IMG/VR virus record: IMGVR_UViG_3300044645_002359
Coordinates: 22,355-86,354 of that record
DNA: 64,000 nt
Direction: 5' to 3' (one strand)
DNA from: a virus
The notes beneath the pieces are model-generated. The model was not told the DNA's origin. It ran no database searches and worked only from the letters and a program-made list of their open reading frames with translations. Position numbers and translations under genes: made by a program. This document shows, piece by piece, positions 3,360-55,704 of this stretch. Numbering within the stretch: position 1 is the first letter of the stretch; each line of letters begins with the position of its first letter.

Positions 3360-3581
3360 ATGAACATTTACAATCAAGTTGCCTTAGTTGAAGGGCCTGA
3401 CGGAAGACATTATATCGCAGAATGGCACCCTAACTCTTACTGTATTATAGAAAACGAGGGAATTGGGTGGTGGTTGGGACCATTCGAGAAATTTGGATTA
3501 TTTGATGACAGGGAATGTCCGAAAGGTCCCCTACCTTCTTTGAAGGGTTACAAGATACTTGCACTTCCCCCGAAGCAATGA
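3360..3581 (+). CDS. hypothetical protein (EGPDGR.YIA family, paralog B)
   Basis: Tandem paralog of 3105..3338. Confidence 0.45.
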   Translation: MNIYNQVALVEGPDGRHYIAEWHPNSYCIIENEGIGWWLGPFEKFGLFDDRECPKGPLPSLKGYKILALPPKQ

Positions 3582-11085: not shown

Positions 11086-12075
11086 ATGATCGCCCTACCC
11101 AACGTCAAGGAAGAAACGGTTATCGAGCCGTTAGTCAAAGAACTGATTCAGGTTACCGTTGAAACAGAAGGCGGTTTGGGTTACGTTCATAGGAAAACTT
11201 TTCAATTCAGTGCAGGAGAGACTCAAGTTCGCCTCAGTCCTTTGCCTACAGGAGTCAGGAAGATTCGAGTTAGGGCGGATATTGAGAGCAGCCAAACTTT
11301 GGTAGAACTTCTTCTGACTTTGGATGCTATTAACAATCTAGAGTACCAAGGTCCTGTCGGATTAACCCTCCCATACCTTCCTTACAGCCGTCAAGACCGC
11401 GCCTGCGCACCTGGCGAGGCTTTTGCCCTTTCTGTTCTTGTAAACTGCCTCGTCCCGTATCTCGGTGCCGACGACACTATCACAACTTGGGATGTTCACA
11501 GCAGTGTGGCACGAACCCTTTTCGATAGTAAATTCCAGGGAGTATTCTATAATGTCTCCGCAGCGAGTCTCTTGCAGAATTTTGAGCTTGAAAAAGATGT
11601 GGTATTCAATCCCTCAACCATTGTCATTGCCCCAGATAAGGGTGCTGTAGACCGGGCCACAGAAGTTCAAAATGTCCTGGGACTAGAACGGACCGTGTAC
11701 GCAACCAAAGTTCGCAATCCGGACGACGGCCAGATCCTAAGAACAGAAGTTCCCGAAGACGTGAATTACCGAGGCAAAAACCTTTTGATTGTAGACGACA
11801 TTTGTGATGGTGGCCGCACTTTCATCGAACTTGCCAAGGTTTTGCGAGAATACGAGCCGTCACGTATTGACCTTTATGTGACACATGGGATCTTCTCAAA
11901 AGGTTTCAAAGTTTTTGAGGGCTTTATTGACAACATCTACGTAGCCAACCTGTTGATGGAACTCATTGAGCACCGCGATGGACGAAAGTCGTTCCCATCA
12001 GGTTCTGACCTCTGTGAAAATGTGGGATGTTATAGAGAATTTCCGAGCAACGTGACTTATCTCCGAAACATTTAA
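11086..12075 (+). CDS. ribose-phosphate pyrophosphokinase (PRPP synthetase)-like; candidate ADPR-PP synthetase (Adps) of an NAD-reconstitution pathway
   Basis: 329 aa; PRPP/PRTase motif NLLIVDDICDGGRTF; Prs-like length; immediately upstream of the NAMPT-like gene. Confidence 0.65.
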   Translation: MIALPNVKEETVIEPLVKELIQVTVETEGGLGYVHRKTFQFSAGETQVRLSPLPTGVRKIRVRADIESSQTLVELLLTLDAINNLEYQGPVGLTLPYLPYSRQDRACAPGEAFALSVLVNCLVPYLGADDTITTWDVHSSVARTLFDSKFQGVFYNVSAASLLQNFELEKDVVFNPSTIVIAPDKGAVDRATEVQNVLGLERTVYATKVRNPDDGQILRTEVPEDVNYRGKNLLIVDDICDGGRTFIELAKVLREYEPSRIDLYVTHGIFSKGFKVFEGFIDNIYVANLLMELIEHRDGRKSFPSGSDLCENVGCYREFPSNVTYLRNI

Positions 12076-12113
12076 CCCTGCTCGACAACCCAAGTCAAAC
12101 CTCTTAACAAACA

Positions 12114-13616
12114 ATGAAACTCTTCGCCCCTAACCTTACAGACTTCTACAAGACGGGTCACTACCGCCAGTACCCTGAAAACACGGAGTTCATCTACTCG
12201 AACATGACCGCACGGTCGGACCGTCTCGCCAAGATGCTCCCCGACTACGACCACAAAGTAGTGGTAGCAGGTATTCTGGGCACAGCAGCTTGGTACCTTC
12301 GCGACCTTTGGAACGATACTTTCTTCAGTCAACCTAAAGACCGAGTACTTGAAAAGTACCGCAGGCGAATGGACTCGGCTCTCGGACCTGGCGCCGTGAG
12401 CACAGCCCACCTGGCCGAACTTCACGACCTCGGTTACCTTCCAATCCGAGTAAAGGCTCTCCCAGAAGGCACCCGTGTCAATCTGCGCGTCCCCTTCCTC
12501 ACGGTGGAGAACACACACCCCGACTTCTATTGGGTGACTAACTACATTGAAACTGCCCTGTCGGCTGAAGTTTGGAAGCATGTCAACAATGCAACCATCG
12601 CCTACGAGTTTCGCCGCCTACTTGACCGATACGCAGATCTAACAGGGACTGACCGGTCTTTTGTTGACTTCCAGGCGCACGACTTTTCCTTCCGAGGAGT
12701 TAGTGGTATTCACGATGCTGCTGCCCACGGGATTGGACACCTGTTCTCCTTCAAGGGTACGGACAACATCCCGGCAATTGACTTCTTGGAAGATTACTAC
12801 AACGTTGAAGGCGAATTTATCGCCGGTGGCGTCCCTGCTACCGAACACAGTGTTATGTGCACCGGGGGCCAAGATACTGAGATTGACACCTACAGGCGTC
12901 TGATTTCTGAAACTTACCCGACTGGTATTGTTAGCATTGTTAGCGACACTTGGGACTACTGGAACGTTCTCACGAACATTGCTGCCCAACTGGAGGAGAC
13001 GATCCTGAATCGCCAACCGGATGCCCTTGGCCTTGCCAAAGTTGTATTCCGCCCTGATAGTGGAGACCCCGAGAGAATCCTTTGCGGCGACCCGGACGCT
13101 GAACCCGGCAGTCCAGCCTTCAAAGGCTCTCTGCAGCTCCTCTGGGACCTCTTCGGAGGCACCGTAAACGAGCAGGGCTTCCGCGTCCTTAACCCTCGCG
13201 TGGGCCTCATCTACGGTGACTCGATCACCCTTCCTAGAGCTCTTTCCATTCTGGAGAACATGCACAGCAACGGATGGGCCAGCGGTAACGTTGTTTTCGG
13301 TGTGGGTTCGTACACTTACCAGTTCCACACTCGCGATACATTCGGCATCGCTTTCAAGACGACTTGGACTCAAATCAACGGTCAACCTGTCGAAGTTATG
13401 AAAGATCCGATTACCGACCGTGGAACTAAGAAGTCGGCCAAAGGGTTGCTTCGTGTTGAAGAAGAGAATGGCGAGTACGTTCTCTACGAGCAACAAAGTC
13501 GAGATGAAGAGAGTCGAGGAGAACTGCGAACCGTATTTATGAATAGCCAGGTCTTCGAAAGACCCGACGAGAGTTTGACGAACATTCGCAGTCGTCTTGT
13601 CTCGCCAAATTCCTAA
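12114..13616 (+). CDS. nicotinamide phosphoribosyltransferase (NAMPT/NadV)-like; candidate Namat
   Basis: 500 aa; the N-terminus NLTDFYKTGHYRQYPENTEFIYSNMTAR matches the NAMPT start (TDSYKVTHYKQYPPNT…); overall NAPRTase-family architecture. Confidence 0.75.
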   Translation: MKLFAPNLTDFYKTGHYRQYPENTEFIYSNMTARSDRLAKMLPDYDHKVVVAGILGTAAWYLRDLWNDTFFSQPKDRVLEKYRRRMDSALGPGAVSTAHLAELHDLGYLPIRVKALPEGTRVNLRVPFLTVENTHPDFYWVTNYIETALSAEVWKHVNNATIAYEFRRLLDRYADLTGTDRSFVDFQAHDFSFRGVSGIHDAAAHGIGHLFSFKGTDNIPAIDFLEDYYNVEGEFIAGGVPATEHSVMCTGGQDTEIDTYRRLISETYPTGIVSIVSDTWDYWNVLTNIAAQLEETILNRQPDALGLAKVVFRPDSGDPERILCGDPDAEPGSPAFKGSLQLLWDLFGGTVNEQGFRVLNPRVGLIYGDSITLPRALSILENMHSNGWASGNVVFGVGSYTYQFHTRDTFGIAFKTTWTQINGQPVEVMKDPITDRGTKKSAKGLLRVEEENGEYVLYEQQSRDEESRGELRTVFMNSQVFERPDESLTNIRSRLVSPNS

Positions 13617-18688: not shown

Positions 18689-19789
18689 TCAACTTTCTGG
18701 AGAAGAGGAACTAAAGGAGTTTACTTGATACTTGACACTTTCACTAAGCTCATCTAGACTCATGTCCCGAATGTCTCTCTCCCAGATGTATATTACCGTA
18801 AACCCGTATTTCTCCGCAACTCCCTTCTTCTCTATATCCCTCTCCCAAATTTCTTCCACAAGGGTACTACCCCCTCCCGGAAGGTGAATACTGTCCCCAA
18901 ACGAATAGATTTCGGGGTTAGCGTGCCAATAGTCCCCCTGGACCTCTATTAGCACTTTGGTCCCCGTAATCAAAAAGTCAAATTGCCTTCTGGCAACAAA
19001 TCGAGAGAACTGAAATTTCAGACCCGCAAGTTCTAAAGCTTGAGACACCTTTTCTTCAACCTTGTTCATTTTCGTAAAAAACTTACCACTCAAGAAGTCA
19101 TCATTGACTTGCTTCCAGAATTTCCTTGTAAGCTCTCCTCTTCTTTCGGAGTACTCCTGCTTTCTTTCCTCGCCCCACCCCCTTCTCGTTTCCCTGAGTT
19201 TTTCTGCTATTGAACTCATCTTTTCCAAGGAAAAAGAAGCTCTAGTCAGAGAAATTGCCTCCGGGTTGGTAACCCTAAGCTTACCATAGCGCTCAAGATG
19301 AGTTTCGTTTATCTTTTCTTTGACATCTGAAAGTTGGAAAACATTGTCCACCCCGTACTTTGATCTAACTGTTTCATTTCTCTTGTGGTAAAATTCAGTT
19401 CCCTTACAGAGAACATTATTCACTCCGTACTTTTCTTGAGAAACTTTCACCATTTTACTTTTCTTTTGATTTGAACCATTAGCTTCTTTAATTTTTCTTA
19501 CAGGTATCTCAAAGTAGTCCATTAGAAAAGATAGTCTCCTGCCCGGTAATCCAAAAAGCTCTTTGAAGTCCGGGAAGCTGAACCCCTTAATCAGGTACAA
19601 GTGCTTTAGTTTTCTGCCACTCTCTAGTTTCAGCGCCGGGTAGCTAAGCTTCAAGGTGTTAAACCTGTACTCCTTTTCCGATAAACCAGGCCCCTTAAGA
19701 CAGGTTTTCAAATGAATCTTCCTTCCACACTCCTTAAGACAAACAAAGCAAACCAAACTCTTAACTAGAACCCCCATGAAAATCTCCAA
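18689..19789 (-). CDS. free-standing homing endonuclease (Vsr/DUF559-like PD-(D/E)xK C-terminal domain, repeated KYGVxNV N-terminal modules)
   Basis: The only − strand gene; C-terminal VLIEVQGDYWHANPE…ERDIEKK…GFTVIYIWERDI resembles a Vsr-like endonuclease domain; it sits between the IntN and IntC halves. Confidence 0.6.
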   Translation of the reverse strand: MEIFMGVLVKSLVCFVCLKECGRKIHLKTCLKGPGLSEKEYRFNTLKLSYPALKLESGRKLKHLYLIKGFSFPDFKELFGLPGRRLSFLMDYFEIPVRKIKEANGSNQKKSKMVKVSQEKYGVNNVLCKGTEFYHKRNETVRSKYGVDNVFQLSDVKEKINETHLERYGKLRVTNPEAISLTRASFSLEKMSSIAEKLRETRRGWGEERKQEYSERRGELTRKFWKQVNDDFLSGKFFTKMNKVEEKVSQALELAGLKFQFSRFVARRQFDFLITGTKVLIEVQGDYWHANPEIYSFGDSIHLPGGGSTLVEEIWERDIEKKGVAEKYGFTVIYIWERDIRDMSLDELSESVKYQVNSFSSSSPES

Positions 19790-20654
19790 AATAGAAAAGA
19801 TAGAAAGTGACTCCCACCTATATGATATACAAACTTTTACCCGTAACTTCTACGCTGAGGGGGTATTGGTACACAATAGCTTAATCAAGCTCTTCAACTA
19901 CAACGGGGACTGGATTGTTTCGACGTCCGGATCGGTGGCAGCAGCTTCGGAAGTTGGTTCCACTGGGCGTTCTTTTGAGGAACTGTTCTGGCTTGTCTTT
20001 GACGAAGTTGGTTATTCTCGGGAATGGCTCGATGAGGGTCTGTGCTATATCTTCGAACTGTGCCACCGCGATAACCGCATCGTTGTGGATTATGCAGAGC
20101 CTCAGTTACCGCTGCTGGCTGTGCGCGACCGTTCCAACGATTTCGAAGAGCTTGAACTTGTTTCGTTCTGCAACCTGTTCGGGTTCAAAGCTGCCAAGTC
20201 GTATGACCTGGGGAGCATGGAAGGCTTGATGGCAGTCGTGAACGATCGTGGCGCCGACCACGAAGGGTTTATCCTGTTTGACGGTGTTGGTCGTGCGAAA
20301 GCAAAGTCCGATGTGTACTGCCAAATGCACCGTGTTCGCGGAAACGGCGATCCGGACTTCTCCGAGCTTTTTCTGAACGACGATTTGGAAGAATTCCTAC
20401 TGCACTTCCCTGAGTACCGTGAGGGCTTCGACGTTCACCTGCGTTCCATCGACATAATGGAAGTTGCTGTGGAAGAGATCATGGGGGTTTACAACCACTT
20501 GAATCAGAAGGACTTTGCTCAAGTTGTAATTGCTAAGGAGAGGGAACTGTCGGGGGCTTGTTTTGCGATTCGCTCCGGTAAAGTTGGCTCCTTCGGTCAG
20601 TGGCTGGAAGGCTTGTCTCCGAAGAAGCTGGATGCCCTGCTGGGTATCAACTGA
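19776..20654 (+). CDS. split-intein IntC (…FYAEGVLVHN|S) fused to the RNA ligase 1 C-extein
   Basis: MKISKIEKIESDSHLYDIQTFTRNFYAEGVLVHNS gives intein blocks F and G with a +1 Ser. The extein SLIKLFNYNGDWIVSTSGS…EGFILFDGVGRAKAKSDVY matches T4 Rnl1 DGSLVST…KSKGS and motifs IV and V EGYVAV…KIKSDWY. Confidence 0.65.
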   Translation: MKISKIEKIESDSHLYDIQTFTRNFYAEGVLVHNSLIKLFNYNGDWIVSTSGSVAAASEVGSTGRSFEELFWLVFDEVGYSREWLDEGLCYIFELCHRDNRIVVDYAEPQLPLLAVRDRSNDFEELELVSFCNLFGFKAAKSYDLGSMEGLMAVVNDRGADHEGFILFDGVGRAKAKSDVYCQMHRVRGNGDPDFSELFLNDDLEEFLLHFPEYREGFDVHLRSIDIMEVAVEEIMGVYNHLNQKDFAQVVIAKERELSGACFAIRSGKVGSFGQWLEGLSPKKLDALLGIN

Positions 20655-22045: not shown

Positions 22046-22405
22046 ATGGCCGAAATCAAAGTAGTCAACAAGTACCACATCGGCGGGAGGCCGATGAAGC
22101 CCCCGGAAGGAGTCATTCGTGCAGCAGTTTACCGCAGCACACCTTTAGGCAACCCTTTCAAAATGGTTAACTCTTCTATTGAGGAGAGGAACAGGGTGTG
22201 CGACGCTTACGAACAATGGTTACCAGCTAAGCTCCTGCAAGATGGAGCTGAGTTAGCCCAGTTCAACGAACTACTGAAACTAGCTCAAACACCGGGGTGC
22301 GAGGCACTAGAACTAATCTGCCATTGCGCCCCAAAACGTTGCCACGGAGACACCATTAAACGCTTACTCGAAACAGAACTTCAAAATGAAATTACCTTTG
22401 ACTAA
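22046..22405 (+). CDS. DUF4326-like protein
   Basis: GNPFKM…RVCDAYEQWL…CHCAPKRCHGD matches the DUF4326 pattern GNPF…Y..WL…C.C.P..CHGD. Confidence 0.45.
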   Translation: MAEIKVVNKYHIGGRPMKPPEGVIRAAVYRSTPLGNPFKMVNSSIEERNRVCDAYEQWLPAKLLQDGAELAQFNELLKLAQTPGCEALELICHCAPKRCHGDTIKRLLETELQNEITFD

Positions 22406-22625
22406 CGTCCTGTCAGAACTCTCTACTGAAGACAAGAATCTTTACACGGCACTTTTGAGTGTCGTCACAGTTGTAATTCTGCTCCTGCTGGGAATGACCT
22501 CTTGTGCTATCACGGAAAGTCGAGAGCGGATTAATAGAACAATCCTAGATTGCAGAAGTACAGCTGTTAATAGAGTCGAGTCAACAGATACACTCGACTT
22601 GATTTGTGGGAAACTGCCTCAGTGA
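22386..22625 (+). CDS. small membrane protein (79 aa)
   Basis: Transmembrane segment LLSVVTVVILLLLGMTSCAI. Confidence 0.35.
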   Translation: MKLPLTNVLSELSTEDKNLYTALLSVVTVVILLLLGMTSCAITESRERINRTILDCRSTAVNRVESTDTLDLICGKLPQ

Positions 22626-23362
22626 CACACTCCCGATATGCCATTATCGGAGACGTTCACTCTCAAGCATTCCCCTTGAAGAATGCCCTAGACTACTGTT
22701 ACGATAACAACTTAACTCCAATTATTCTTGGCGACCTTTTTGATTCGCAGTGTCAGGTTTCAGAGTCAGTTTCTGTTTACAACCTTGTAAGAAAGTCTCA
22801 GGGCGATCTTGGAGCGATTGTACTTCGCTCGAACCACCAGCACCTCCTTGAGAAACTTATCAAAAAAGAAGAGGTTTCCCTTAAAAAAGACTTGTGTAAA
22901 ACAGTCAGAGAGTTTCAAGAGGCAGGAATTTGTCTAACTGAGGTAGGGCAGTGGCTTGAAACTTTCCCTTACGTTTTCGCCTTCCGAGACTCTCGAGGAC
23001 AAGAGTACAGAGTCGCTCACGCGGAAATTCCTGCTTCAGTAAAGGTACCGAACTTCGATCAAACCTGGATGTATCTTCACCCCACGGAACAAGAGCTGCG
23101 ATGCCTGCTTTGGGGCGCCGATTACTCCCTGCCCAACCGTGACCGGTTCTGGTGGCTCGGGAAGCCCGAGAGGGACTGGGTAGCCGTCGCGGGCCATTAC
23201 CACAAGGTTGTCAACGATGGCCGCTCTCTCGTCCTCGACGCTGGGTGTGGAGGGAAGACCCGCGCCTGGTACGACAAGCGTCCCCCTGCGTTACTTCTCT
23301 ACGACGTTGAGGTCCAAAGCCTGATTGAATTCCCGGCTTTTGATAACTCGGTCGTAGGGTAA
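22622..23362 (+). CDS. metallophosphoesterase, PPP/ApaH-like (paralog 1)
   Basis: YAIIGDVHSQ…ILGDLFDS…LRSNHQHLL are PPP-family motifs; GTGA-coupled GTG start inferred. Confidence 0.6.
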   Translation: MTHSRYAIIGDVHSQAFPLKNALDYCYDNNLTPIILGDLFDSQCQVSESVSVYNLVRKSQGDLGAIVLRSNHQHLLEKLIKKEEVSLKKDLCKTVREFQEAGICLTEVGQWLETFPYVFAFRDSRGQEYRVAHAEIPASVKVPNFDQTWMYLHPTEQELRCLLWGADYSLPNRDRFWWLGKPERDWVAVAGHYHKVVNDGRSLVLDAGCGGKTRAWYDKRPPALLLYDVEVQSLIEFPAFDNSVVG

Positions 23363-26426: not shown

Positions 26427-26461
26427 TATTGCATGAACATGACACGAGCCTAATCTACAAA

Positions 26462-27586
26462 ATGGCAAACATCGAACGCAAACTTGCATCTGTCCGCAAA
26501 GTAACGGACATTCGCCCCATCCCCGACGCTGACGCCATCGAATGCGCCATTGTAGGTGGTGGTTGGCCCGTGGTAGTGAAAAAGGGAGAATTTCAGGTTG
26601 GCGACCTCGCCATCTACTTCGAGATTGATTCCTGGATTCCTCACGAACTTGCCCCATTCCTCTCCAAGGGGAAGAAACCAAGGGAGTATAATGGAGTGAA
26701 GGGGGAGAGGCTGAAAACTGTCAGGCTCCGTGGTCAAGTCTCCCAGGGTCTCCTGCTCCGCTTCTCGGACATCTCTCCAAGCTTCTACGTTGTCTCGCTA
26801 GCCGAACCTTACGGGGGGAGGGAATTTCTCCGAGTTGATCAGTGCGTGTGGGAGGAAGGTGAGGACTTCACTCTAGAGTTCGGAATTCAGAAATGGGAAG
26901 CTCCTGTCCCAGCTTGCTTGGCTGGTCAAGTTCGCGGGAACTTTCCTAGCTTCCTCGTGAAGACGGACCAGGAACGTTGTCAGAATGTTGTGGAGGAAAT
27001 CTTTGAGCGCCATAAGGGTGAAACCTACGAAGTTACTATCAAACTTGATGGGTCTTCCTGCACGGTCTACGTCAAGGACGGGGAAGTTGGGGTGTGCAGC
27101 CGTAACCTTGACCTCAAGGAAACCGAAGGCAATAGTTTCTGGAAGGCTGCTAGGGATCAGGGCATTATCGATGCTATGCTTGCATACAATGGGAAGACTG
27201 GTCACAGTATTGCCTTGCAGTCGGAAACCCTTGGAGAAGGCATCCAGGGCAACCAGGAAGGAATCAAGGGACAACGCCTATTCCTGTTTGACATCTTCGA
27301 TATCGACAGCCAAACTTACATGAAGCCAGGGGCCAGAATGAACCTCTTGGACAAGTACCTAGTTCCATTAGGCGCTGATTTAACCCATACCCCTGTCCTA
27401 CACCCCGCAATGTGTGTAACTGATAGTTCCGCCAACCTTGATGAGCTACTAGCGTACGCCGATGGCCCGTCCATGAACCCCAAAGTCAAACGCGAAGGCT
27501 TAGTATTCAAGTCCAATGACTCTGAGTTTTCCTTCAAGGCCATTAGTAATGAATGGCTCTTATCCAAGGGAAAGAAGGGTGGCTGA
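26462..27586 (+). CDS. ATP-dependent RNA ligase (KxDG nucleotidyltransferase with an N-terminal OB-like extension; DraRnl/Rnl5-like)
   Basis: Motif I IKLDGSS, motif IV EGLVFK, motif V FKAISNEWLLSKGKK; an N-terminal domain of about 170 aa precedes the nucleotidyltransferase. Confidence 0.65.
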   Translation: MANIERKLASVRKVTDIRPIPDADAIECAIVGGGWPVVVKKGEFQVGDLAIYFEIDSWIPHELAPFLSKGKKPREYNGVKGERLKTVRLRGQVSQGLLLRFSDISPSFYVVSLAEPYGGREFLRVDQCVWEEGEDFTLEFGIQKWEAPVPACLAGQVRGNFPSFLVKTDQERCQNVVEEIFERHKGETYEVTIKLDGSSCTVYVKDGEVGVCSRNLDLKETEGNSFWKAARDQGIIDAMLAYNGKTGHSIALQSETLGEGIQGNQEGIKGQRLFLFDIFDIDSQTYMKPGARMNLLDKYLVPLGADLTHTPVLHPAMCVTDSSANLDELLAYADGPSMNPKVKREGLVFKSNDSEFSFKAISNEWLLSKGKKGG

Positions 27587-33802: not shown

Positions 33803-34123
33803 GTGGAAGTTTCCAAAGAAGAGGACAACTGCCAAGACATTGAGGTTTCACGTGAAGATCTAGAGAATTTGCTGAACCTTGCAAAGCAAGCTCTAAAAAC
33901 TCGAGACAAGACTTTGGAGAACTTGAAAGAAGGAGAAGTTGTGGTAGGGCCGGAAGACATTCTTCCTACTCGATCAGGCTTTTTCTTCGGCTCCACAGAC
34001 TACGACGAGTATTACTACTCCGACCTTGAACACACGGTTAAAGTCCTGGAGAAAATACTCAACCATCCGGGTATCCCAAAAGAGGACTACAGCTGGAGCT
34101 TCATCTACCGAGCGTCCTGGTAA
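33803..34123 (+). CDS. hypothetical protein (GTG start, or a read-through continuation of 33600)
   Basis: ORF with no ATG. Confidence 0.35.
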   Translation: MEVSKEEDNCQDIEVSREDLENLLNLAKQALKTRDKTLENLKEGEVVVGPEDILPTRSGFFFGSTDYDEYYYSDLEHTVKVLEKILNHPGIPKEDYSWSFIYRASW

Positions 34124-34270
34124 TTGCCGAGAGTTTACCGTCTACCCCTGGCCCTATGTTAGGGCTGTCGGTGTCCACGCCGCCATTTCCCTAGGGTAAC
34201 CCCGGGAACAAAGTTGATACAGCCATCACTTGTATCCAAAACACAAAAACAATCAACTTGAGAGAAGAAA

Positions 34271-35764
34271 ATGACAACCTTTTTGAACGCACTCGAAAAC
34301 GAATTCAATACTACGACCACAGCCAACGGCGCAAAAGCCTATAAGTCCACAGGTTCCAAGAACCTGGACCTTTTCGGGAAGATTGCAGCCTGCCGCAACG
34401 ACGTTAGCGAAGCAACTCGCCTATTCAACCTTGCTTATGCTGAAGACCCTGAGACCGCAACCAGAATCCTGTTCTGGGCACGTGACATTCGCGGTGGCCA
34501 GGGTGAGCGTAAGATCTTCCGAGAAGTTTTCAAGGAGCTGGTTCGCAATGATGCTACAATCGGCGCGAAACTCATTAGTTTGATCCCGCAGTATGGACGC
34601 TGGGATGATGTGGTAGCCCTTGAAGGCACCCTAGTTTGGAATGTTGCACTCGAGGCAATCAAGGCACAGCTGAACGCTGACTTGAACACCGAAGTTGGAA
34701 ACTCCGTGTCATTGCTTGCGAAATGGCTCCCTTCCATTAACGCCTCTAGCAAGGAGTCTAAGAGGATTGGCCGCAAGATTGCCGAGGCAATGGGTTGGAA
34801 TGAGCGTCAATATCGCAAGGCTTTGACTGCTCTTAGGACACAAATCAAAATTGTCGAACAGGCAATGTGTGCCCGTGAGTGGGATGCCATTGATTATAGC
34901 AAGTTGCCTTCTCGTGCAGGCTTCATGTATCGGAAAGCTTTCGCAAATCGTGATGGCGACCGTTACCAGTCCTACCTGGATGCAGTTAAAAAAGGTGAAG
35001 CAAAGATCAATGCCGGTACTTTGTATCCGTATGACATCGTTGAGAAGTGTCTCTACAACCAAGAATCCAATGATACTCTAGAAGTAATGTGGAAAGCCCT
35101 GCCGAACTTCATGGAGGGCAAGGAATTGAATGGGCTTGTTGTTGCCGATGTTAGCCGTTCTATGTCAGGCCGTCCAATGGCAGTATCCATCTCTCTGGCG
35201 ATGTATATCGCAGAGCGTAATACCGGCATCTGGAAGGACAAGTTCCTAACATTCTCAGGGAATCCTTCTCTACAGACTGTGACTGGCAGTAGCCTTTCAA
35301 ACAAGGTTCGCAACCTTAGCCGAGCAGATTGGGGCGGTAACACTGATATTCAGAAGACGTTTGACCTTATTCTGGATACTGCAGTTCGGAACAACATTCC
35401 AGAGTCAGACATGCCCCGCAAACTGATTATTGTCTCAGACATGCAGTTTGATAACTGTGTTATCATGGGAGGTAATTACTCCGGTCGTATGAGTTATGGC
35501 GGAGCCCGAGTCACCAACTACGAAGCAATCCGCATCAAGTACGCTCAAGCTGGCTACAGCTTGCCCGAAGTTATCTTCTGGAATGTCGATTCCTCAGATA
35601 ACGTCCCGATGAAGGCACATGATTCCGGTACCGCTCTCGTTAGCGGTTGCTCTCCGTCAATCCTGACCGCAGTTCTTACCAGAAACGCAATCACCCCATT
35701 GTCCCTAATGAGAGATGCTGTTTATACTGAAAGGTATGACGCTGTGGGTGCGGTCTTTAACTGA
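34271..35764 (+). CDS. DUF2828 family protein with a C-terminal von Willebrand A domain with a metal-ion-dependent adhesion site (vWA/MIDAS) (Ro60/TROVE-like domain order)
   Basis: N-terminus LNALENEFNTTTTANGAKAYKSTGSKNLDLFGKIAACR…LFWARDIRGGQGERKIFR fits the DUF2828 signature; C-terminal VADVSRSMSG is a MIDAS DxSxS motif. Confidence 0.6.
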   Translation: MTTFLNALENEFNTTTTANGAKAYKSTGSKNLDLFGKIAACRNDVSEATRLFNLAYAEDPETATRILFWARDIRGGQGERKIFREVFKELVRNDATIGAKLISLIPQYGRWDDVVALEGTLVWNVALEAIKAQLNADLNTEVGNSVSLLAKWLPSINASSKESKRIGRKIAEAMGWNERQYRKALTALRTQIKIVEQAMCAREWDAIDYSKLPSRAGFMYRKAFANRDGDRYQSYLDAVKKGEAKINAGTLYPYDIVEKCLYNQESNDTLEVMWKALPNFMEGKELNGLVVADVSRSMSGRPMAVSISLAMYIAERNTGIWKDKFLTFSGNPSLQTVTGSSLSNKVRNLSRADWGGNTDIQKTFDLILDTAVRNNIPESDMPRKLIIVSDMQFDNCVIMGGNYSGRMSYGGARVTNYEAIRIKYAQAGYSLPEVIFWNVDSSDNVPMKAHDSGTALVSGCSPSILTAVLTRNAITPLSLMRDAVYTERYDAVGAVFN

Positions 35765-35940
35765 TGGAAAGGACCCTAGTAACTACGTTAATGTCAGCCC
35801 AGGGTCTTCTCCTTGGGTTGAAGTTAACAGGGCAAATAGCCTGGTCGTGGCTGTGGGTGTTTAGTCCTATTTTAGTTGTAAGCTGTGGGTTAGGGTTACT
35901 TATCCTCCTATTGATCCTAGGGTTGATGGGCGGTAAGTAA
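35765..35940 (+). CDS. small membrane protein (58 aa), paralog of 25733
   Basis: MERTLVTTLMSAQGLLLGLKLTGQIAWSWLWVFSPILVV…; ATGA-coupled. Confidence 0.35.
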
Positions 35941-36048
35941 GGCAGACCCGTAAGATGGTTCAGCAATCAAACCTTTCTTTGTAACAGAAAAAACCAACCA
36001 TCTTGTTTAAATAAAGTCAACTTCCCTGGTAGTTCACCGGGGCAACAA

Positions 36049-36166
36049 TGGGGAATGGTGCAATGGCAGCACACGTAATTAACGGTTACCTTGGATAAGG
36101 TACAGACAGCAATTACAAAAATTCCATTCCACGGACGTGACGGAGGTTCGATTCCTTCTTCCCCAT
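36049..36166 (+). ncRNA. tRNA-like RNA with a non-canonical insert of about 85 nt (acceptor TGGGGAA/TTCCCCA; D arm GTGC…GCAC; T arm GGAGGttcgattCCTTC)
   Basis: Canonical 7-bp acceptor, D and T arms, but no standard anticodon stem; the insert carries a TACCTTggatAAGGTA hairpin and a CAGACAGCAATTA motif. Confidence 0.4.
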
Positions 36167-36363
36167 TTTCGAAAATCAACTCAAGCAATCAACAATGAAG
36201 TCATCTCATCTTTACACTTTGATCGGTGTTGTAGCACTGTGGTTTGTATTGACCTTGACACTAATTCTCAAGGAAAACTATCAAGGTGCTATCGGAACCG
36301 GATTGGCCCTTTTCTTTTCCTCGGTTGGTACGATAGGTGTTGTTGCCCATTTTGAAGGGAACA

Positions 36364-36429
36364 GGCGGTAAACCGCCCCATGTGGTTCGGTTTGCACCCT
36401 TGTTTTCGCACCGCGAAAACGCTATGATT
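36364..36429 (+). promoter_or_regulatory. hairpin-promoter cassette copy 12
   Basis: GGCGGTAAACCGCC…GGTTCGGTTT; -35 TTGTTT; spacer TCGCACCGCGAAAA; -10 TATGAT; ATG at 36435. Confidence 0.55.
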
Positions 36430-36434
36430 ATAAC

Positions 36435-36878
36435 ATGAACCAAGAGACCTACTTCCCTTGCTCTCGCCAGATCGAGATCCTCGATCAGCACGAGAACGCC
36501 AACGAGATTCCTCCGTACGTTAATTATCTGGTGCGGTTTGAGAACCCCTACGGTGGAGAAAGTGTCGGAGTGGTAATTGAGCCCAACTCCGAAGGCGTCG
36601 AAGAAGTTTACACTAACCAGAAATTTCCGGTAGCTTCCATGCTTCCTGGCCAATCGGAAAATGACGAGCTTCTGCTCAACCTTTTCCGCACCTGGGTGTT
36701 GACTCCGCCGATGTTTACACAAGTCACTGTTCGTCAACAGACGGACAAGTTCTACACCTTGAGTTTTCACAATCAGCACTGGAATTTCCATGCCCGCTCT
36801 CGGAACCTCTCGTACATCAAAGGGAAGATTCGGAACCTAGCAAAGTCCCGTGATGTGAAGGTCACCTGGGAGGTTTGA
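36435..36878 (+). CDS. hypothetical protein (147 aa)
   Basis: Leaderless ATG. Confidence 0.45.
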   Translation: MNQETYFPCSRQIEILDQHENANEIPPYVNYLVRFENPYGGESVGVVIEPNSEGVEEVYTNQKFPVASMLPGQSENDELLLNLFRTWVLTPPMFTQVTVRQQTDKFYTLSFHNQHWNFHARSRNLSYIKGKIRNLAKSRDVKVTWEV

Positions 36879-37023
36879 CTCCAAGTTTACCTCCCTCCTT
36901 GAGGCCTATGCTGTTTTTGAGACGAGTCAGCGTTAACTAAAGGATAATGCGAGACAGTTAAAAACTTTTTCAGCTAGGTGGTTCAAATCCACTGTCAACA
37001 CTCATCTTGTTCACAAATAAAAC

Positions 37024-37147
37024 CGAAGAGTAGACAAGTGGTTAGGCAGCGGTAATGCAAAAAAGATTATCTAGTTTAGGTGATTCAGCAATACCCTAAT
37101 ACGCTAAAAGGAACCGCCATACGCAAGTTCGAATCTTGCCTCTTCGA
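37024..37147 (+). ncRNA. tRNA-like RNA with an insert of about 50 nt (acceptor CGAAGAG/CTCTTCG; T arm GCAAGttcgaatCTTGC)
   Basis: Perfect 7-bp acceptor and T arm; the middle carries a GGTAATGC…GCAATACC long stem and a GATTCAGCAATACC motif. Confidence 0.4.
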
Positions 37148-37255
37148 TTGTTTTTCTTTGAAAACGTAGATAGTTCAGCAATTCACCCTAACTCAATAAG
37201 GAAAACAACTATCTTGCTGAATCTAGTTTCAACAAACTATTTGCGAAGCAAATAA

Positions 37256-37373
37256 GGGACCGTAGCTCAACTGGTAGAGCGCTAAATAAAAGTTATCTTG
37301 TACAAGATACGTCAGCAATTAAAAAATACCTCGTTTAAAGGAGTGGTTGCAGGTTCGAGTCCTGCCGGTCCCA
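37256..37373 (+). ncRNA. tRNA-like RNA with a 46-nt insert (acceptor GGGACCG/CGGTCCC; D arm GCTCAACTGGTAGAGC; T arm GCAGGttcgagtCCTGC)
   Basis: Textbook tRNA 5' half and T arm; between them is a palindromic hairpin ATCTTgtacAAGAT plus ACGTCAGCAATTA; no well-paired anticodon stem. Confidence 0.45.
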
Positions 37374-37588
37374 TTTACCCCAAGTCTAGCCATGAAAATT
37401 TCACGGTTGTTACCCTGCTGGCCTGCACAGTGCTAACTCTCTCGCCAACGTGGGCAAAATACCAGAGTCTAATCACTGGCGCAAACCCGGAGGAAGTTCA
37501 AGAAAATGCCTTCAAGAAAAGTATGAGCTATCCGGTGGGCTCTCTCAAGTGTAGCCAGCGTTGTTCTCAGTGGTGGCATCACGACTGA
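37298..37588 (+). CDS. doubtful ORF overlapping the tRNA-like gene; possible small lipoprotein if it starts downstream (LLAC lipobox)
   Basis: The track ORF starts inside the tRNA-like element; no in-frame ATG lies after the RNA. Confidence 0.15.
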   Translation: MYKIRQQLKNTSFKGVVAGSSPAGPIYPKSSHENFTVVTLLACTVLTLSPTWAKYQSLITGANPEEVQENAFKKSMSYPVGSLKCSQRCSQWWHHD

Positions 37589-37616: not shown

Positions 37617-37985
37617 ATGACAAATAGTACAACCCCGTTTCACTTGACCCAAAGTCACCTGAAACTGCTGAGGAGAATGCACGTAGGTTGGAGCGTCTGT
37701 GAGTTTGGTGCTCCCGAGATAGACCCAAAGAGACCATACGGCAACAGTTGGGTGCTTGGCGACATACACGAGATTTTGACAGGGGAAGACATAGACGAAC
37801 TAACTGAATCTCAGAAGGAGGAATACAGGCAGTTACACGAAGAAACTCAAACAGCCCTCCAGATTATCCTTTCCATGGGCAAGTTTGAGGAAGGCTTGTA
37901 CATACGGACTAACCCGTACTCTTCCACCTGGGTACCGTACCCACTCGCGGGCAGAATCGCGGAAAAATCACAAAACGCTACTTAG
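37617..37985 (+). CDS. hypothetical protein (122 aa)
   Basis: ORF. Confidence 0.45.
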   Translation: MTNSTTPFHLTQSHLKLLRRMHVGWSVCEFGAPEIDPKRPYGNSWVLGDIHEILTGEDIDELTESQKEEYRQLHEETQTALQIILSMGKFEEGLYIRTNPYSSTWVPYPLAGRIAEKSQNAT

Positions 37986-43745: not shown

Positions 43746-43797
43746 TTCACTTGTCAGGGTTGGCCTAAACGTGAACAACCCTGACGTTTCAACTCAT

Positions 43798-43887
43798 GGG
43801 CGTGTGGTGTACGGTAGCACAGGGTCCCTTATGAAGACCACTCCGGCAGATTACCGGCTAGTTAGGGTTCGACTCCCTACGCGCCTA
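43798..43887 (+). tRNA. type-II-like tRNA (long variable arm CCGGcagattaCCGG; anticodon loop CTTATGA, identity ambiguous)
   Basis: Acceptor GGGCGTG/CGCGCCT; T arm TAGGGttcgactCCCTA; weak anticodon stem. Confidence 0.4.
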
Positions 43888-43971
43888 TTTGATTTTGGGT
43901 AATAATGACCATGCTTTGTAACCAAAGCATTAACAACCTGCATTAGCAATCTACGCTAACAACGACAAAAA

Positions 43972-52633: not shown

Positions 52634-52886
52634 GTCAAACGTTCAGGCTGCTTCGGCAGCCCGGAAGTAGGTGACAAAGGAACGCATTCGTTCAGTCTGT
52701 TTACAGGCCGGGATTGTCTCCAAAGGAACGCGCAAAGCAACCCTAGGAGAACACAATGATTAACACTTCAGACAATTCAACCAAAGGTCTCAACCCTCTG
52801 TTTCTTATCAAAAAAAGCCTTATCAAAGAAAGCAAACTCAAAGAAGCACAGCTTGAGATGGCCAAGAAACCCTAAATTCTATAAAA

Positions 52887-54614: not shown

Positions 54615-54759
54615 CTGCCGAGAGTAAACTGGAAACCTTGGACCCCTTAACTCCTTGGTACGAGTTTCTTTCATACTGCGAAGTTTGTCGGAGTCTGGGT
54701 GTGACTCCTTCAGTGGGCCGTTTCACTCGCTATCAAAACTACCTGAAGACAATCAAACA

Positions 54760-55704
54760 ATGACAAACGAACTAACCAGCCCCATGTTAGATAGAGCCAA
54801 AGGCTGCTTAATCGGACTCGCAATCGGCGATGCCTTGGGTGCGCCAGTAGAATTTGGCAGTTACGGGTCTTTTGACCCTGTTGTTGGGTTCAGGGATGGA
54901 GGACCATTCAACCTTAAAGCGGGCCAATGGACCGATGATACTTCTCAGGCTTTGTGCTTGGCCGACTCCATTCTGTCCAACAAAGGGTTTAGCCAAGGCG
55001 ACTTCCTAAACAGGATGATTAATTGGAAGCAGTATGGACACAACAGCAGTACTGGGAAGTGTTTTGACATTGGAATCGGAACGGCCCATGCTCTCCAGTC
55101 TTATAGCAGCACAGGCAAGGTGCCAGTGAATACAAATTCAGGTGGTAACGGAAACATAATGAGGCTCGCACCGGTTGCTATAGCTTTCTTTAGGGATAAC
55201 TACAAAACCCAAGAGATTGCCAGCCTGTCGAGTCTAACTACCCATGGCCACATTTCAGCATTAACTTGCGCGGACTTCCTCAGTGTGATGCTAAGGTCTT
55301 ATATCGTAAGTAGTGATTGCGAAGGGGACATTACATATAACTGTCAAACTAACGAGGAAACTTATGAAATTGACCTGTGTAGTGTGACTCTGGAAAGAAT
55401 AGCGAATGCTGTGACTTCTGAGGAAAGTGAGTGGCATAATGTAAGCGGATTCTCAACCGACACTTTGTGTGCAGCTTTGTATTGTTTCTTCAACACGGAG
55501 TCCTTTGAAGAATGTGTATTGGCTGCGGTAAACCTTGGCGGAGACGCGGATAGCGTAGGCGCCGTAGCTGGACAAATTGCAGGAGCTTACTACGGGCTTT
55601 CCGGTATACCTCAAAGATTCATTGTTGGATTGCAGGACAGCGATAAGTTTCTGAATTTGGCAGAACAATTATTTAACTTGTATCGAAACAAAGATGAAAA
55701 CTAA
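54760..55704 (+). CDS. ADP-ribosylglycohydrolase (ARH/DraG family)
   Basis: LDRAKGCLIGLAIGDALGAPVEF…GQWTDDTSQAL is the ARH signature. Confidence 0.75.
   Translation: MTNELTSPMLDRAKGCLIGLAIGDALGAPVEFGSYGSFDPVVGFRDGGPFNLKAGQWTDDTSQALCLADSILSNKGFSQGDFLNRMINWKQYGHNSSTGKCFDIGIGTAHALQSYSSTGKVPVNTNSGGNGNIMRLAPVAIAFFRDNYKTQEIASLSSLTTHGHISALTCADFLSVMLRSYIVSSDCEGDITYNCQTNEETYEIDLCSVTLERIANAVTSEESEWHNVSGFSTDTLCAALYCFFNTESFEECVLAAVNLGGDADSVGAVAGQIAGAYYGLSGIPQRFIVGLQDSDKFLNLAEQLFNLYRNKDEN

Follow-up and report, generated by a model that had tools for sequence, protein, structure and literature searches.

A conserved RNA module interrupts tRNA genes beside a gene for a distant Ro60-like protein in an uncultured large phage

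Here we describe a stretch of 64,000 nucleotides (nt), hereafter the window, that covers positions 22,355 to 86,354 of the IMG/VR virus record IMGVR_UViG_3300044645_002359. Its source is an uncultured large phage whose DNA bears only a weak likeness to that of cultured phages, reaching 64.5% across 0.5 kb of a DUF2828 gene, the cultured matches being the freshwater Synechococcus phages B3 and B23. That gene heads the segment considered here (34271–37373), and is followed on the same strand by three tRNA elements (36049–36166, 37024–37147 and 37256–37373), each with a large insert, and by free-standing copies of the same insert. A first-pass annotation, made from the letters alone, had singled out the segment as tRNA-like RNAs beside a gene of Ro60-like architecture. 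We find that the three elements are tRNA genes, two of them clear and one tRNA-like, that carry one conserved RNA module.

The gene (34271–35764, + strand) encodes a protein of 497 amino acids (aa) in which an alpha-helical DUF2828 part is followed by a DUF7788 von Willebrand factor A (vWA) domain with a conserved MIDAS (metal-ion-dependent adhesion site), as had been read from the sequence at first pass. Pfam returned DUF2828 (E = 2e-36) and DUF7788 (E = 4e-47) along with weak vWA matches, and the MIDAS residues (DxSxS...T...D; D293, S295, S297, T358 and D390) do not vary among 36 homologues, whose identity to the window protein is 62–93%. The order of an alpha-helical repeat domain and then a vWA domain, together with overall structural similarity, places the protein with Ro60 by architecture, and two structure-comparison methods each put Ro60 at rank 1 for its predicted model. 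The family is large (more than 6,700 DUF2828/DUF7788 homologues were scored); PHROGs labels DUF2828 ‘RNA-binding protein’, the family is otherwise annotated ‘hypothetical’ or vaguely ‘RNA-binding’, and an NCBIfam scan of the window protein gave no match. From its predicted fold, the window protein is a distant relative of Ro60, recognizable by that fold only and not by sequence. The Ro60-like layout proposed earlier is thus borne out in domain order and in structural ranking, but not by any sequence link to the TROVE domain.

Two of the three elements, 36049–36166 and 37256–37373 (both + strand), match the Rfam tRNA family (RF00005, threshold 29 bits) over model positions 1–71, at 41.5 and 50.1 bits respectively, and both matches loop out 58 nt inside the anticodon arm. 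The element at 37024–37147 (+ strand) gave no Rfam hit. Inspection shows a perfect 7-bp acceptor stem (CGAAGAG/CUCUUCG), a T arm (GCAAG UUCGAAU CUUGC) and a D stem that has a mismatch in this window; its module (37054–37105) lies within a closed 5-bp stem (GCGGU/ACCGC) that leaves no canonical anticodon loop. The body of this tRNA-like gene is almost invariant across at least eight related contigs (0.006 differences per site), and its insert hairpin covaries. The acceptor and T arms assigned to the three elements at first pass are therefore where they had been placed. The usual anatomy of a contiguous 5-bp anticodon stem and 7-nt loop in a molecule of 70–95 nt is found in none of the three, which are 118–124 nt long, and ARAGORN called neither these elements nor any of the insert-bearing copies in 13 close relatives.

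The inserts measure 47, 52 and 45 nt in the first, second and third element, so that the range of 45–85 nt given earlier was too wide, and all three are built alike: an A-rich lead-in, a hairpin of 6–8 bp, 1–4 nt, the heptamer CAGCAAU and an A/U-rich linker of 9–13 nt. In the first element (insert 36077–36123) the hairpin is UACCUU-GGAU-AAGGUA (36087–36102), with CAGCAAU at 36107–36113 and an A/U linker; in the third (insert 37284–37328) it is UAUCUU-GUAC-AAGAUA (37294–37309), with CAGCAAU at 37313–37319 and an A-rich linker. The paired strands of the three hairpins are thus UACCUU/AAGGUA, AUUAUCUA/UAGGUGAU and UAUCUU/AAGAUA. A pairing of CAGCAAU with the upstream exon was considered and set aside, since by inspection its register differs among the three elements; the heptamer thus appears to be conserved for its sequence and not through exon pairing.

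The first and third elements have their anticodon stem divided by the module, which sits in its 5′ strand ahead of a complete anticodon hairpin. With the insert taken out, the first element reads as tRNA-Gly(UCC) with discriminator U73, in which CGU+CC / AUUCCAC / GGACG forms a perfect 5-bp stem and a 7-nt loop with U33, A37 and the anticodon UCC. In the third element, whose body is tRNA-Lys-like and whose module lies between positions 28 and 29, the same operation gives CU+CCU / CGUUUAA / AGGAG, a perfect stem with G at position 33. The gene corresponding to it in at least 15 related contigs reads CG+CCU / CUUUUAA / AGGCG, which is the textbook loop of tRNA-Lys(UUU), and within this family pair 28:42 shows a compensatory change across the insert, from U-A to G-C between lineages. 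The earlier statement that none of the elements has a normal anticodon arm accordingly describes the contiguous sequence; it fails for the first and third elements once the insert is removed. Nor is the anticodon arm replaced by a long stem, as had been supposed: in these two of the three elements the arm is interrupted by a compact module placed 5′ of a recognizable anticodon hairpin, an anatomy that one of the alternatives offered at first pass, tRNA genes disrupted by a small repeat element, had described correctly.

The module is widespread. A scan of IMG/VR with the RNA pattern alone (AAGAT...CAGCAATT...GGTTCRA) returned 73 stretches with 76 matches, 46 of these matches parsing as a tRNA with module, and a broader parse of all fetched loci gave 59 distinct insert-bearing tRNAs with at least 10 unrelated bodies. 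The consensus that emerges is a helix of 6–9 bp, CAGCAAY 0–5 nt later and an A/U linker, always followed by a tRNA-arm hairpin. The point of insertion is always 5′ of the anticodon loop and varies: 26/27, with the whole stem downstream, 28/29, 29/30, or 31/32, after a closed stem. The module hairpin covaries (UAUCUU/AAGAUA, UACCUU/AAGGUA, AAUCUU/AAGAUU, UAUCUA/UAGAUA, ACAUCUU/AAGAUGU and others). RNAalifold, run on a plain MAFFT alignment of 28 insert tRNAs, recovers the acceptor, D and T stems plus the insert hairpin, for which it finds compensatory changes in five of the six pairs independently of the module parser. The split anticodon stem is real as well: all five pairs form in 45 of the 59 tRNAs, and, when each distinct stem is counted once, the two cognate strands are fully paired in 56%, as against 5% for strands crossed between stems.

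Copies of the module also occur outside tRNAs. The heptamer CAGCAAT is found 21 times in the window where 7.4 occurrences are expected (none of 100 shuffles reached 21), and five copies lie on the + strand within 1.36 kb, at 35961, 36107, 37086, 37176 and 37313; the five copies in 1.4 kb first reported are thereby confirmed, with two of the positions then given (35963 and 37170) slightly off. Two of the five belong to free-standing modules on the + strand, in which an 8-bp terminal stem encloses CAGCAAU, a linker and a small hairpin. Module 1 (35953–36003) consists of AGAUGGUU, CAGCAAU, a linker, an anticodon-arm mimic (UUUCU UUGUAAC AGAAA, 35974–35990), another linker and AACCAUCU, and has near-identical copies in the related loci L001, L010 and L051. 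Module 2 (37168–37214) consists of AGAUAGUU, CAGCAAU, a CCU-(9-nt loop)-AGG hairpin and AACUAUCU, and accounts for the inverted repeat seen at first pass at 37161–37233. A further copy on the + strand (36920–37007) has an outer stem AGACGAGU/ACUCAUCU with one mismatch, followed by CAGCGUU and an inner hairpin that mimics a T arm (GGUGG UUCAAAU CCACU, 36977–36993). The ‘lone T arm’ previously noticed at about 36975–37000 is therefore present, but is the inner hairpin of a module copy rather than an isolated element; its counterpart in L001, a relative at 91% identity, is intact (AAGGUGAG...CUCACCUU).

Related contigs hold dozens of distinct free-standing copies, often several within a few kb, and their stems covary. 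The inner hairpin usually has a stem of 4–5 bp and a 7-nt loop resembling an anticodon loop, and in some copies is a T-arm mimic. Stem-enclosed instances numbered 228 with the motif as anchor and 56 with the reversed motif, a difference of about fourfold. We also considered whether the free-standing copies might encode small peptides, some of them beginning with an AUG (AGAUGGUU...) and others with AGAUAGUU, and dismissed this on inspection, as the frames are not conserved.

One more copy lies in the 5′ untranslated region of the Ro60-like gene itself (34211–34259, + strand), where a stem AAGUUGAU/AUCAACUU encloses A-CAGCCAU and a small inner hairpin. The 3′ strand of this stem ends directly at a Shine–Dalgarno-like GAGAGAAG, 11 nt before the ATG at 34271. 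A stem with CAGC is found upstream of 24 of 28 distinct DUF2828 genes. The element lies against the ribosome-binding site in all loci at 58% protein identity or more, and occurs in several loci at about 40% identity in which the stem sequence is entirely different and CAGCAAY is kept. Across loci the leader stems covary (AAGUUGAU, AAGUUAAU, UAGGUGCA, AAAACGC and AAGACACU).

Comparative genomics ties the RNAs to the gene. Among the 46 tRNA-like loci, which had been fetched from IMG/VR by the RNA pattern alone, 29 carry a DUF2828 homologue on the same strand, usually upstream, at 175–5477 nt and mostly less than 2.3 kb from the RNA; most of the tRNA-like hits that have no such gene are cut off by contig ends. 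The gene accompanies just one of the 21 matches that are not tRNA-like, and that one proves to be a real insert-tRNA. The linkage persists at 34–44% protein identity (L014, L046, L065, L066, L077, L095 and L103), and in loci fetched via the protein the RNAs lie right beside the DUF2828 gene, which in more distant relatives sits within ordinary tRNA clusters. When the RNA pattern was run against cellular genomes, almost all of the first 120 matches were due to chance; just one of them has a T arm (L103), and it comes from a metagenome-assembled genome, on a 15.8-kb contig in which a DUF2828 gene is present too and which probably belongs to a phage. All window copies of the module are on the + strand, and tRNA-embedded copies are on the DUF2828 strand in every gene-bearing locus. 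The small open reading frames (ORFs) within the RNA cluster (58, 58 and 147 aa) match no family and are conserved in close relatives only, and for these reasons we do not count them as parts of the system. In about 20 related contigs the third tRNA is succeeded by a 122-aa ORF (37617–37985 in the window), which likewise matches no family and whose counterpart in the 252-kb relative L023 immediately precedes the DUF2828 gene; this ORF may be another component of the system.

Cultured examples came to light via the protein, a BLAST search of cultured phages with a 49-nt insert consensus having returned chance hits in Lactobacillus phages only. In Synechococcus phage B3 a module tRNA (221705–221814), annotated ‘tRNA-Pseudo-GCA’, lies about 0.4 kb downstream of the DUF2828 gene gp345, after the small gene gp346. 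Aeromonas phage Aeh1 (NC_005260) has an unannotated insert tRNA (L020, 9530–9642) with the loop CUGUUAA and the module variant CUGCAAU, 2.6 kb downstream of its DUF2828 gene Aeh1p164. The adjoining 122-nt ‘tRNA-Val(CAC)’ annotated in Aeh1 (L020, 9662–9783) also has a hairpin plus CCGCAAAU, its anticodon loop not being confidently placed. In another locus (L015, 4411–4545) a tRNA-Lys-like gene stands directly upstream of a DUF2828 gene at 41% identity and has a 61-nt insertion in the anticodon loop, between CUUU and UAA; this insertion contains a hairpin with GUGCAAAU, not CAGCAAU, and may be a diverged form of the module.

The anticodon loops of the interrupted tRNAs are a mixture. Where the insert is in the 5′ strand, the loop is 7 nt long, with U33 and with a purine at position 37 (R37), in 23 of 37 distinct tRNAs, as against about 12% by chance; the remaining split-stem loops, about a third, have 8 nt or a C or G at position 33, the third element of the window among them. 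Anticodon triplets differ by 0.39–0.89 per site between relatives whose bodies differ by 0.015–0.21 per site, which counts against a decoding role, and orthologues of the first element with the same body have the anticodons UAC (L001) and CAU (L011). In L023 an ordinary tRNA-Thr(UGU) aligns with its insert-bearing paralogue, placing the insert at 29/30. The same relative has over-long but otherwise ordinary tRNAs (1583–1665, 3367–3462 and 11896–11978), including an 83-nt tRNA-Lys(UUU) and a 96-nt tRNA-Pro(AGG).

We suggest, with a probability of roughly 0.55, that the Ro60-like protein encoded just upstream uses the module as its recognition element, and that the RNAs that carry it make up a new Y-RNA-like class displaying tRNA arms. 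If the module is a binding site for this protein, the tight synteny, the strict orientation and the leader copy at the ribosome-binding site would all be explained. The protein would bind the stem plus CAGCAAY, and the position of the leader copy against the ribosome-binding site suggests that it represses its own translation. Operators that mimic the substrate of the protein they control are well known, among them that of Escherichia coli thrS, which mimics the anticodon arm of tRNA-Thr, those of ribosomal proteins, and those of T4 RegA and gp32. As in thrS-type operators, a copy of the ligand with an anticodon-arm-like hairpin lies here against the ribosome-binding site of the presumed binder's gene; unlike them, the leader element belongs to a multi-copy family of stand-alone RNAs, and the repression it would exert is deduced from position.

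The free-standing RNAs of 45–90 nt would be mini Y-RNA-like molecules whose terminal stem encloses CAGCAAY and an anticodon-arm or T-arm mimic, and in the full tRNAs, which have the module on the 5′ side of their anticodon hairpin, it is the anticodon arm of the tRNA itself that would substitute for the mimic. The anticodon stem of a tRNA is contacted in the ribosomal A and P sites. With a 45-nt domain emerging from the stem's 5′ strand, binding to both should be blocked, so that the insert-bearing tRNAs should be inactive in translation as transcribed; thus locked out, they may be bound by the Ro-like protein and present their tRNA arms, with a function like that of YrlA and other Y RNAs. The two RNA ligases and the phosphoesterases encoded nearby lead us to propose a role in phage–host conflict over tRNA damage and repair.

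Several observations weigh against this proposal. The structural model of the protein is moderate (pLDDT, the predicted local distance difference test score, is 64, and template modelling scores (TM-scores) are 0.3–0.4); a sequence match to TROVE (PF05731) is absent, Pfam giving only DUF2828, DUF7788 and weak vWA matches; and neither phmmer nor a 36-sequence profile found Ro60 for the window protein among PDB sequences. The link between protein and RNA is drawn from synteny, the leader copy and similarity of the predicted fold, four distant DUF2828 loci lack a leader element in the upstream search described above, and the proposed part in the conflict over tRNA damage is guessed at from the genes nearby. 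A good anticodon loop is retained by most split-stem copies, and some lineages have a discriminator that suits the anticodon (U73 with UCC or GCC, G73 with GUU, A73 with UAC or CAU).

Good loops and fitting discriminators are what would be expected of chargeable tRNAs, and so favour excision of the module. It would then be a protein-dependent intron, cut at both ends by an endonuclease, with the stem rejoined by a phage ligase to give decoding tRNAs of 71–76 nt; we regard this as the main rival and as a possible account, if not the one we favour. It overlaps with the proposal of a Ro-like recognition element, differing in the fate of the RNA, and is compatible with binding of the module by the Ro-like protein, possibly as a scaffold. 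With the insert removed, the 5-bp stem is perfect in 45 of 59 tRNAs, 23 of 37 distinct split-stem copies have a loop of the canonical U33/R37 type, the discriminator suits the anticodon in several lineages, and the window encodes two RNA ligases and phosphoesterases; furthermore, for the family of the third tRNA neither IMG/VR nor the metagenomes of the Joint Genome Institute (JGI) yielded a copy that lacks the insert or has been spliced, which makes the insert a fixed feature. Archaeal and eukaryotic tRNA introns spliced by proteins are likewise tens of nt long, lie in the anticodon arm at variable positions, with non-canonical ones in its stem among them, and restore a canonical stem-loop on removal, but here one conserved module recurs in many tRNAs and outside tRNAs, where, as in the mRNA leader, splicing makes no sense, and the host is a bacteriophage. 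No endonuclease candidate was seen among the ORFs scanned, nor any bulge-helix-bulge of the archaeal type, in which a 4-bp helix parts two 3-nt bulges, in minimum-free-energy folds of the three elements or by inspection of the junctions, no systematic search for one having been made. The insertion point varies (26/27, 28/29, 29/30, 31/32), about a third of the loops are non-canonical, the closed-stem family that includes 37024–37147 has no usable anticodon loop, and L023 already owns a normal tRNA-Thr(UGU). To our knowledge, group I introns (in tRNA-Leu UAA and tRNA-fMet genes of bacteria and phages) are the only established intervening sequences in bacterial-type tRNA genes. They are self-splicing, at least 200 nt long with P1–P9, and placed in the anticodon loop, whereas the inserts here are of 45–52 nt with a single hairpin, mostly lie in the stem and have no Rfam intron match at E ≤ 10.

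The remaining readings are unlikely. That the module is a selfish miniature DNA element without RNA function, of the repetitive extragenic palindromic (REP), miniature inverted-repeat transposable element (MITE) or IS200/605 palindrome-associated transposable element (PATE) kind, appears improbable to us, even though it is a short hairpin repeat with up to five copies in 5 kb, found in several unrelated tRNA bodies and in intergenic DNA, and a LAGLIDADG endonuclease gene lies nearby in L023. Such an element would not be expected to keep to one strand, as the window copies do and all tRNA-embedded copies in gene-bearing loci, or to stay within the tRNA region and a single gene's leader. No target-site duplications were noticed and, for the third family in IMG/VR and the JGI metagenomes, no insert-less alleles; the outer stems covary around a fixed CAGCAAY, each copy is followed by a tRNA-arm-like hairpin, and strong purifying selection acts on the interrupted bodies, which in the closed-stem family diverge by 0.6%. 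The conservation of the bodies, together with covariation of the hairpin as RNA, speaks equally against a promoter or terminator signal acting as DNA in decaying tRNA pseudogenes, to which we give very little credence. The TTG of the hairpin loop and a TAnnnn after CAGCAAT are 16–17 bp apart, loosely like −35 and −10 boxes, and L002 has a perfect TTGACA; however, a consensus scan found nothing at the inserts and a total count equal to the shuffle expectation, the spacer is where the most conserved bases (GACAGCAAT) would come to lie, and B3 and the second tRNA have CUAG instead of TTG at that position. Hardly more credible is a strict form of the Y RNA idea raised in the first-pass annotation, by which the RNAs would be canonical members of the YrlA type and the protein a bona fide Rsr/Ro60 orthologue. 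The RNAs do adjoin a Ro60-like gene and contain tRNA-like domains, but the Rfam alignment shows the arm order of a normal tRNA with an acceptor stem that is open and not loop-closed, and the protein lacks a TROVE Pfam match. The motif GNCGAAN0-1G is absent from the RNAs, its single match in 34100–37500 (at 36597, inside an ORF) comparing with 2.4 expected by chance. At the gathering threshold Rfam reports no Y RNA, intron or ribozyme family across the whole window; beyond tRNA, the region 35700–37500 yields none of these at E ≤ 10 either, and weak chance-level hits only. What stands of the Y RNA idea is the tie between RNAs and a Ro-like gene, and not the YrlA type.

Setting the Ro-like protein and its proposed RNAs beside known Ro60 systems brings out both kinship and novelty. 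There is established precedent for Ro60 proteins encoded by phages with Y-like RNAs nearby (PMC4201824; PMC12135203), and the Ro60 system, whose Y RNAs are YrlA and YrlB in bacteria and mycobacteriophages, has been tied to RNA repair operons (PMC4201824; PMC12135203; PMC7824862). As with Ro60/Rsr and its Y RNAs, a ring-type protein of alpha-helical and vWA/MIDAS domains is encoded here beside small RNAs that have a conserved stem and a tRNA-like part, and, as in bacterial Y RNAs, the motif is on the 5′ strand of a conserved stem, the free-standing copies coming quite close to miniature Y RNAs. By sequence, however, the protein is DUF2828/DUF7788 and not TROVE. In YrlA the arms come in a permuted order, with T first, an acceptor-like loop next and D last; the stem that binds Ro is built from the two ends of the RNA, and on its 5′ strand lies GNCGAAN0-1G (PMC4201824). 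The Y-like RNAs Yrl1 and Yrl2 of Thermus phage phiLo were found via the same CGAA motif (PMC12135203). In the module RNAs the motif is instead a stem with CAGCAAY, and what is tRNA-like in them is the mimic of a single arm or else a whole tRNA, in normal order and with the module in its anticodon stem. Normal arm order, the absence of the GNCGAA motif and a different conserved element thus set them outside YrlA, and a module copy in the protein's own leader distinguishes the system from Ro60/Y RNA systems as well. We found no paper that ties DUF2828 to RNA or to Ro60, or that describes the module or such tRNA inserts. The module, the interrupted tRNAs and the DUF2828–Ro60 link thus appear to be new, Ro60 with neighbouring tRNA-like RNAs in phages being already known.

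The wider gene content of the window, which would suit a role in contention over intact tRNA, includes an Rnl1-like ligase, a DraRnl-type ligase and two metallophosphoesterases, along with NAD-salvage genes, an ADP-ribosylglycohydrolase and a transfer-messenger RNA (tmRNA); in the related contig L021 a stretch of 3.5 kb takes in the DUF2828 gene together with the ligase and a phosphoesterase. The two ligase genes of the window are at 19776–20654 and 26429–27586, and a phosphoesterase gene is at 22604–23362. The start of the Rnl1-like ligase ORF (19776–20654) matches the intein C-terminal splicing motif (TIGR01443, residues 14–35, above cut-off), so the gene may be interrupted by an intein whose body lies upstream. 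Genes resembling those for phosphoribosyl pyrophosphate (PRPP) synthetase and for nicotinate and nicotinamide phosphoribosyltransferases (NAPRTase/NAMPT), together with an ADP-ribosylglycohydrolase gene (11086–13616 and 54655–55704), form a set typical of phage counter-measures to NAD+-depleting defence.

Other RNA elements lie elsewhere in the window. The tmRNA (2069–2378) is permuted, of the two-piece type, with the tag peptide ANKIVKFERTAVAV (Rfam RF04321, 73 bits, 2103–2287). A glutamine riboswitch aptamer of the glnA leader type is found at 52638–52688 (41.3 bits, threshold 35). At 43797–43888 ARAGORN calls a 92-nt tRNA-Ile(UAU) with a long extra arm, which is not in Rfam at the gathering threshold and has a similar sequence in L004. 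An intergenic element at 36356–36432, with similar copies in L004, combines a GGCGGTnnACCGCC hairpin, about 30 nt and GCTATnnT; it recurs just before start codons and looks like a repeated terminator–promoter cassette of this phage group.

Going beyond the proposed recognition element, we may speculate that the Ro-like protein and the module RNAs form an anti-defence ribonucleoprotein of programmable anticodon specificity, whose anticodon arms, presented singly or on a whole tRNA that the insert locks out of translation, serve as baits or substrates in the struggle with host anticodon nucleases, the module being excised and the stem resealed by the phage ligases when needed. This scenario is doubtful as it stands; were it true, the module would be the first known enzyme-dependent intervening sequence of tRNA in bacterial viruses, and the fast-changing anticodon triplets on their conserved scaffolds would be the record of an arms race.

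Ro60 and Y RNAs are found from bacteria to humans, and their bacterial and viral roles are poorly understood. The predicted fold now ties the large DUF2828/DUF7788 family to Ro60, and the signature of a stem, CAGCAAY and a tRNA-arm hairpin defines an unannotated RNA family that can be searched for and that explains ‘pseudo-tRNA’ calls in phages, such as the ‘tRNA-Pseudo-GCA’ of B3 and the 122-nt ‘tRNA-Val’ of Aeh1. We have found no description of complete tRNAs with a protein-linked module inside the anticodon stem, and the two cultured phages, B3 and Aeh1, open binding, processing and function to direct experiment. Excision of the module would mean that bacterial viruses possess a type of tRNA splicing that bacteria are believed to lack; failing excision, phages would make translation-incompetent look-alikes of tRNA with rapidly changing anticodons, which would be relevant to immunity that targets tRNA.

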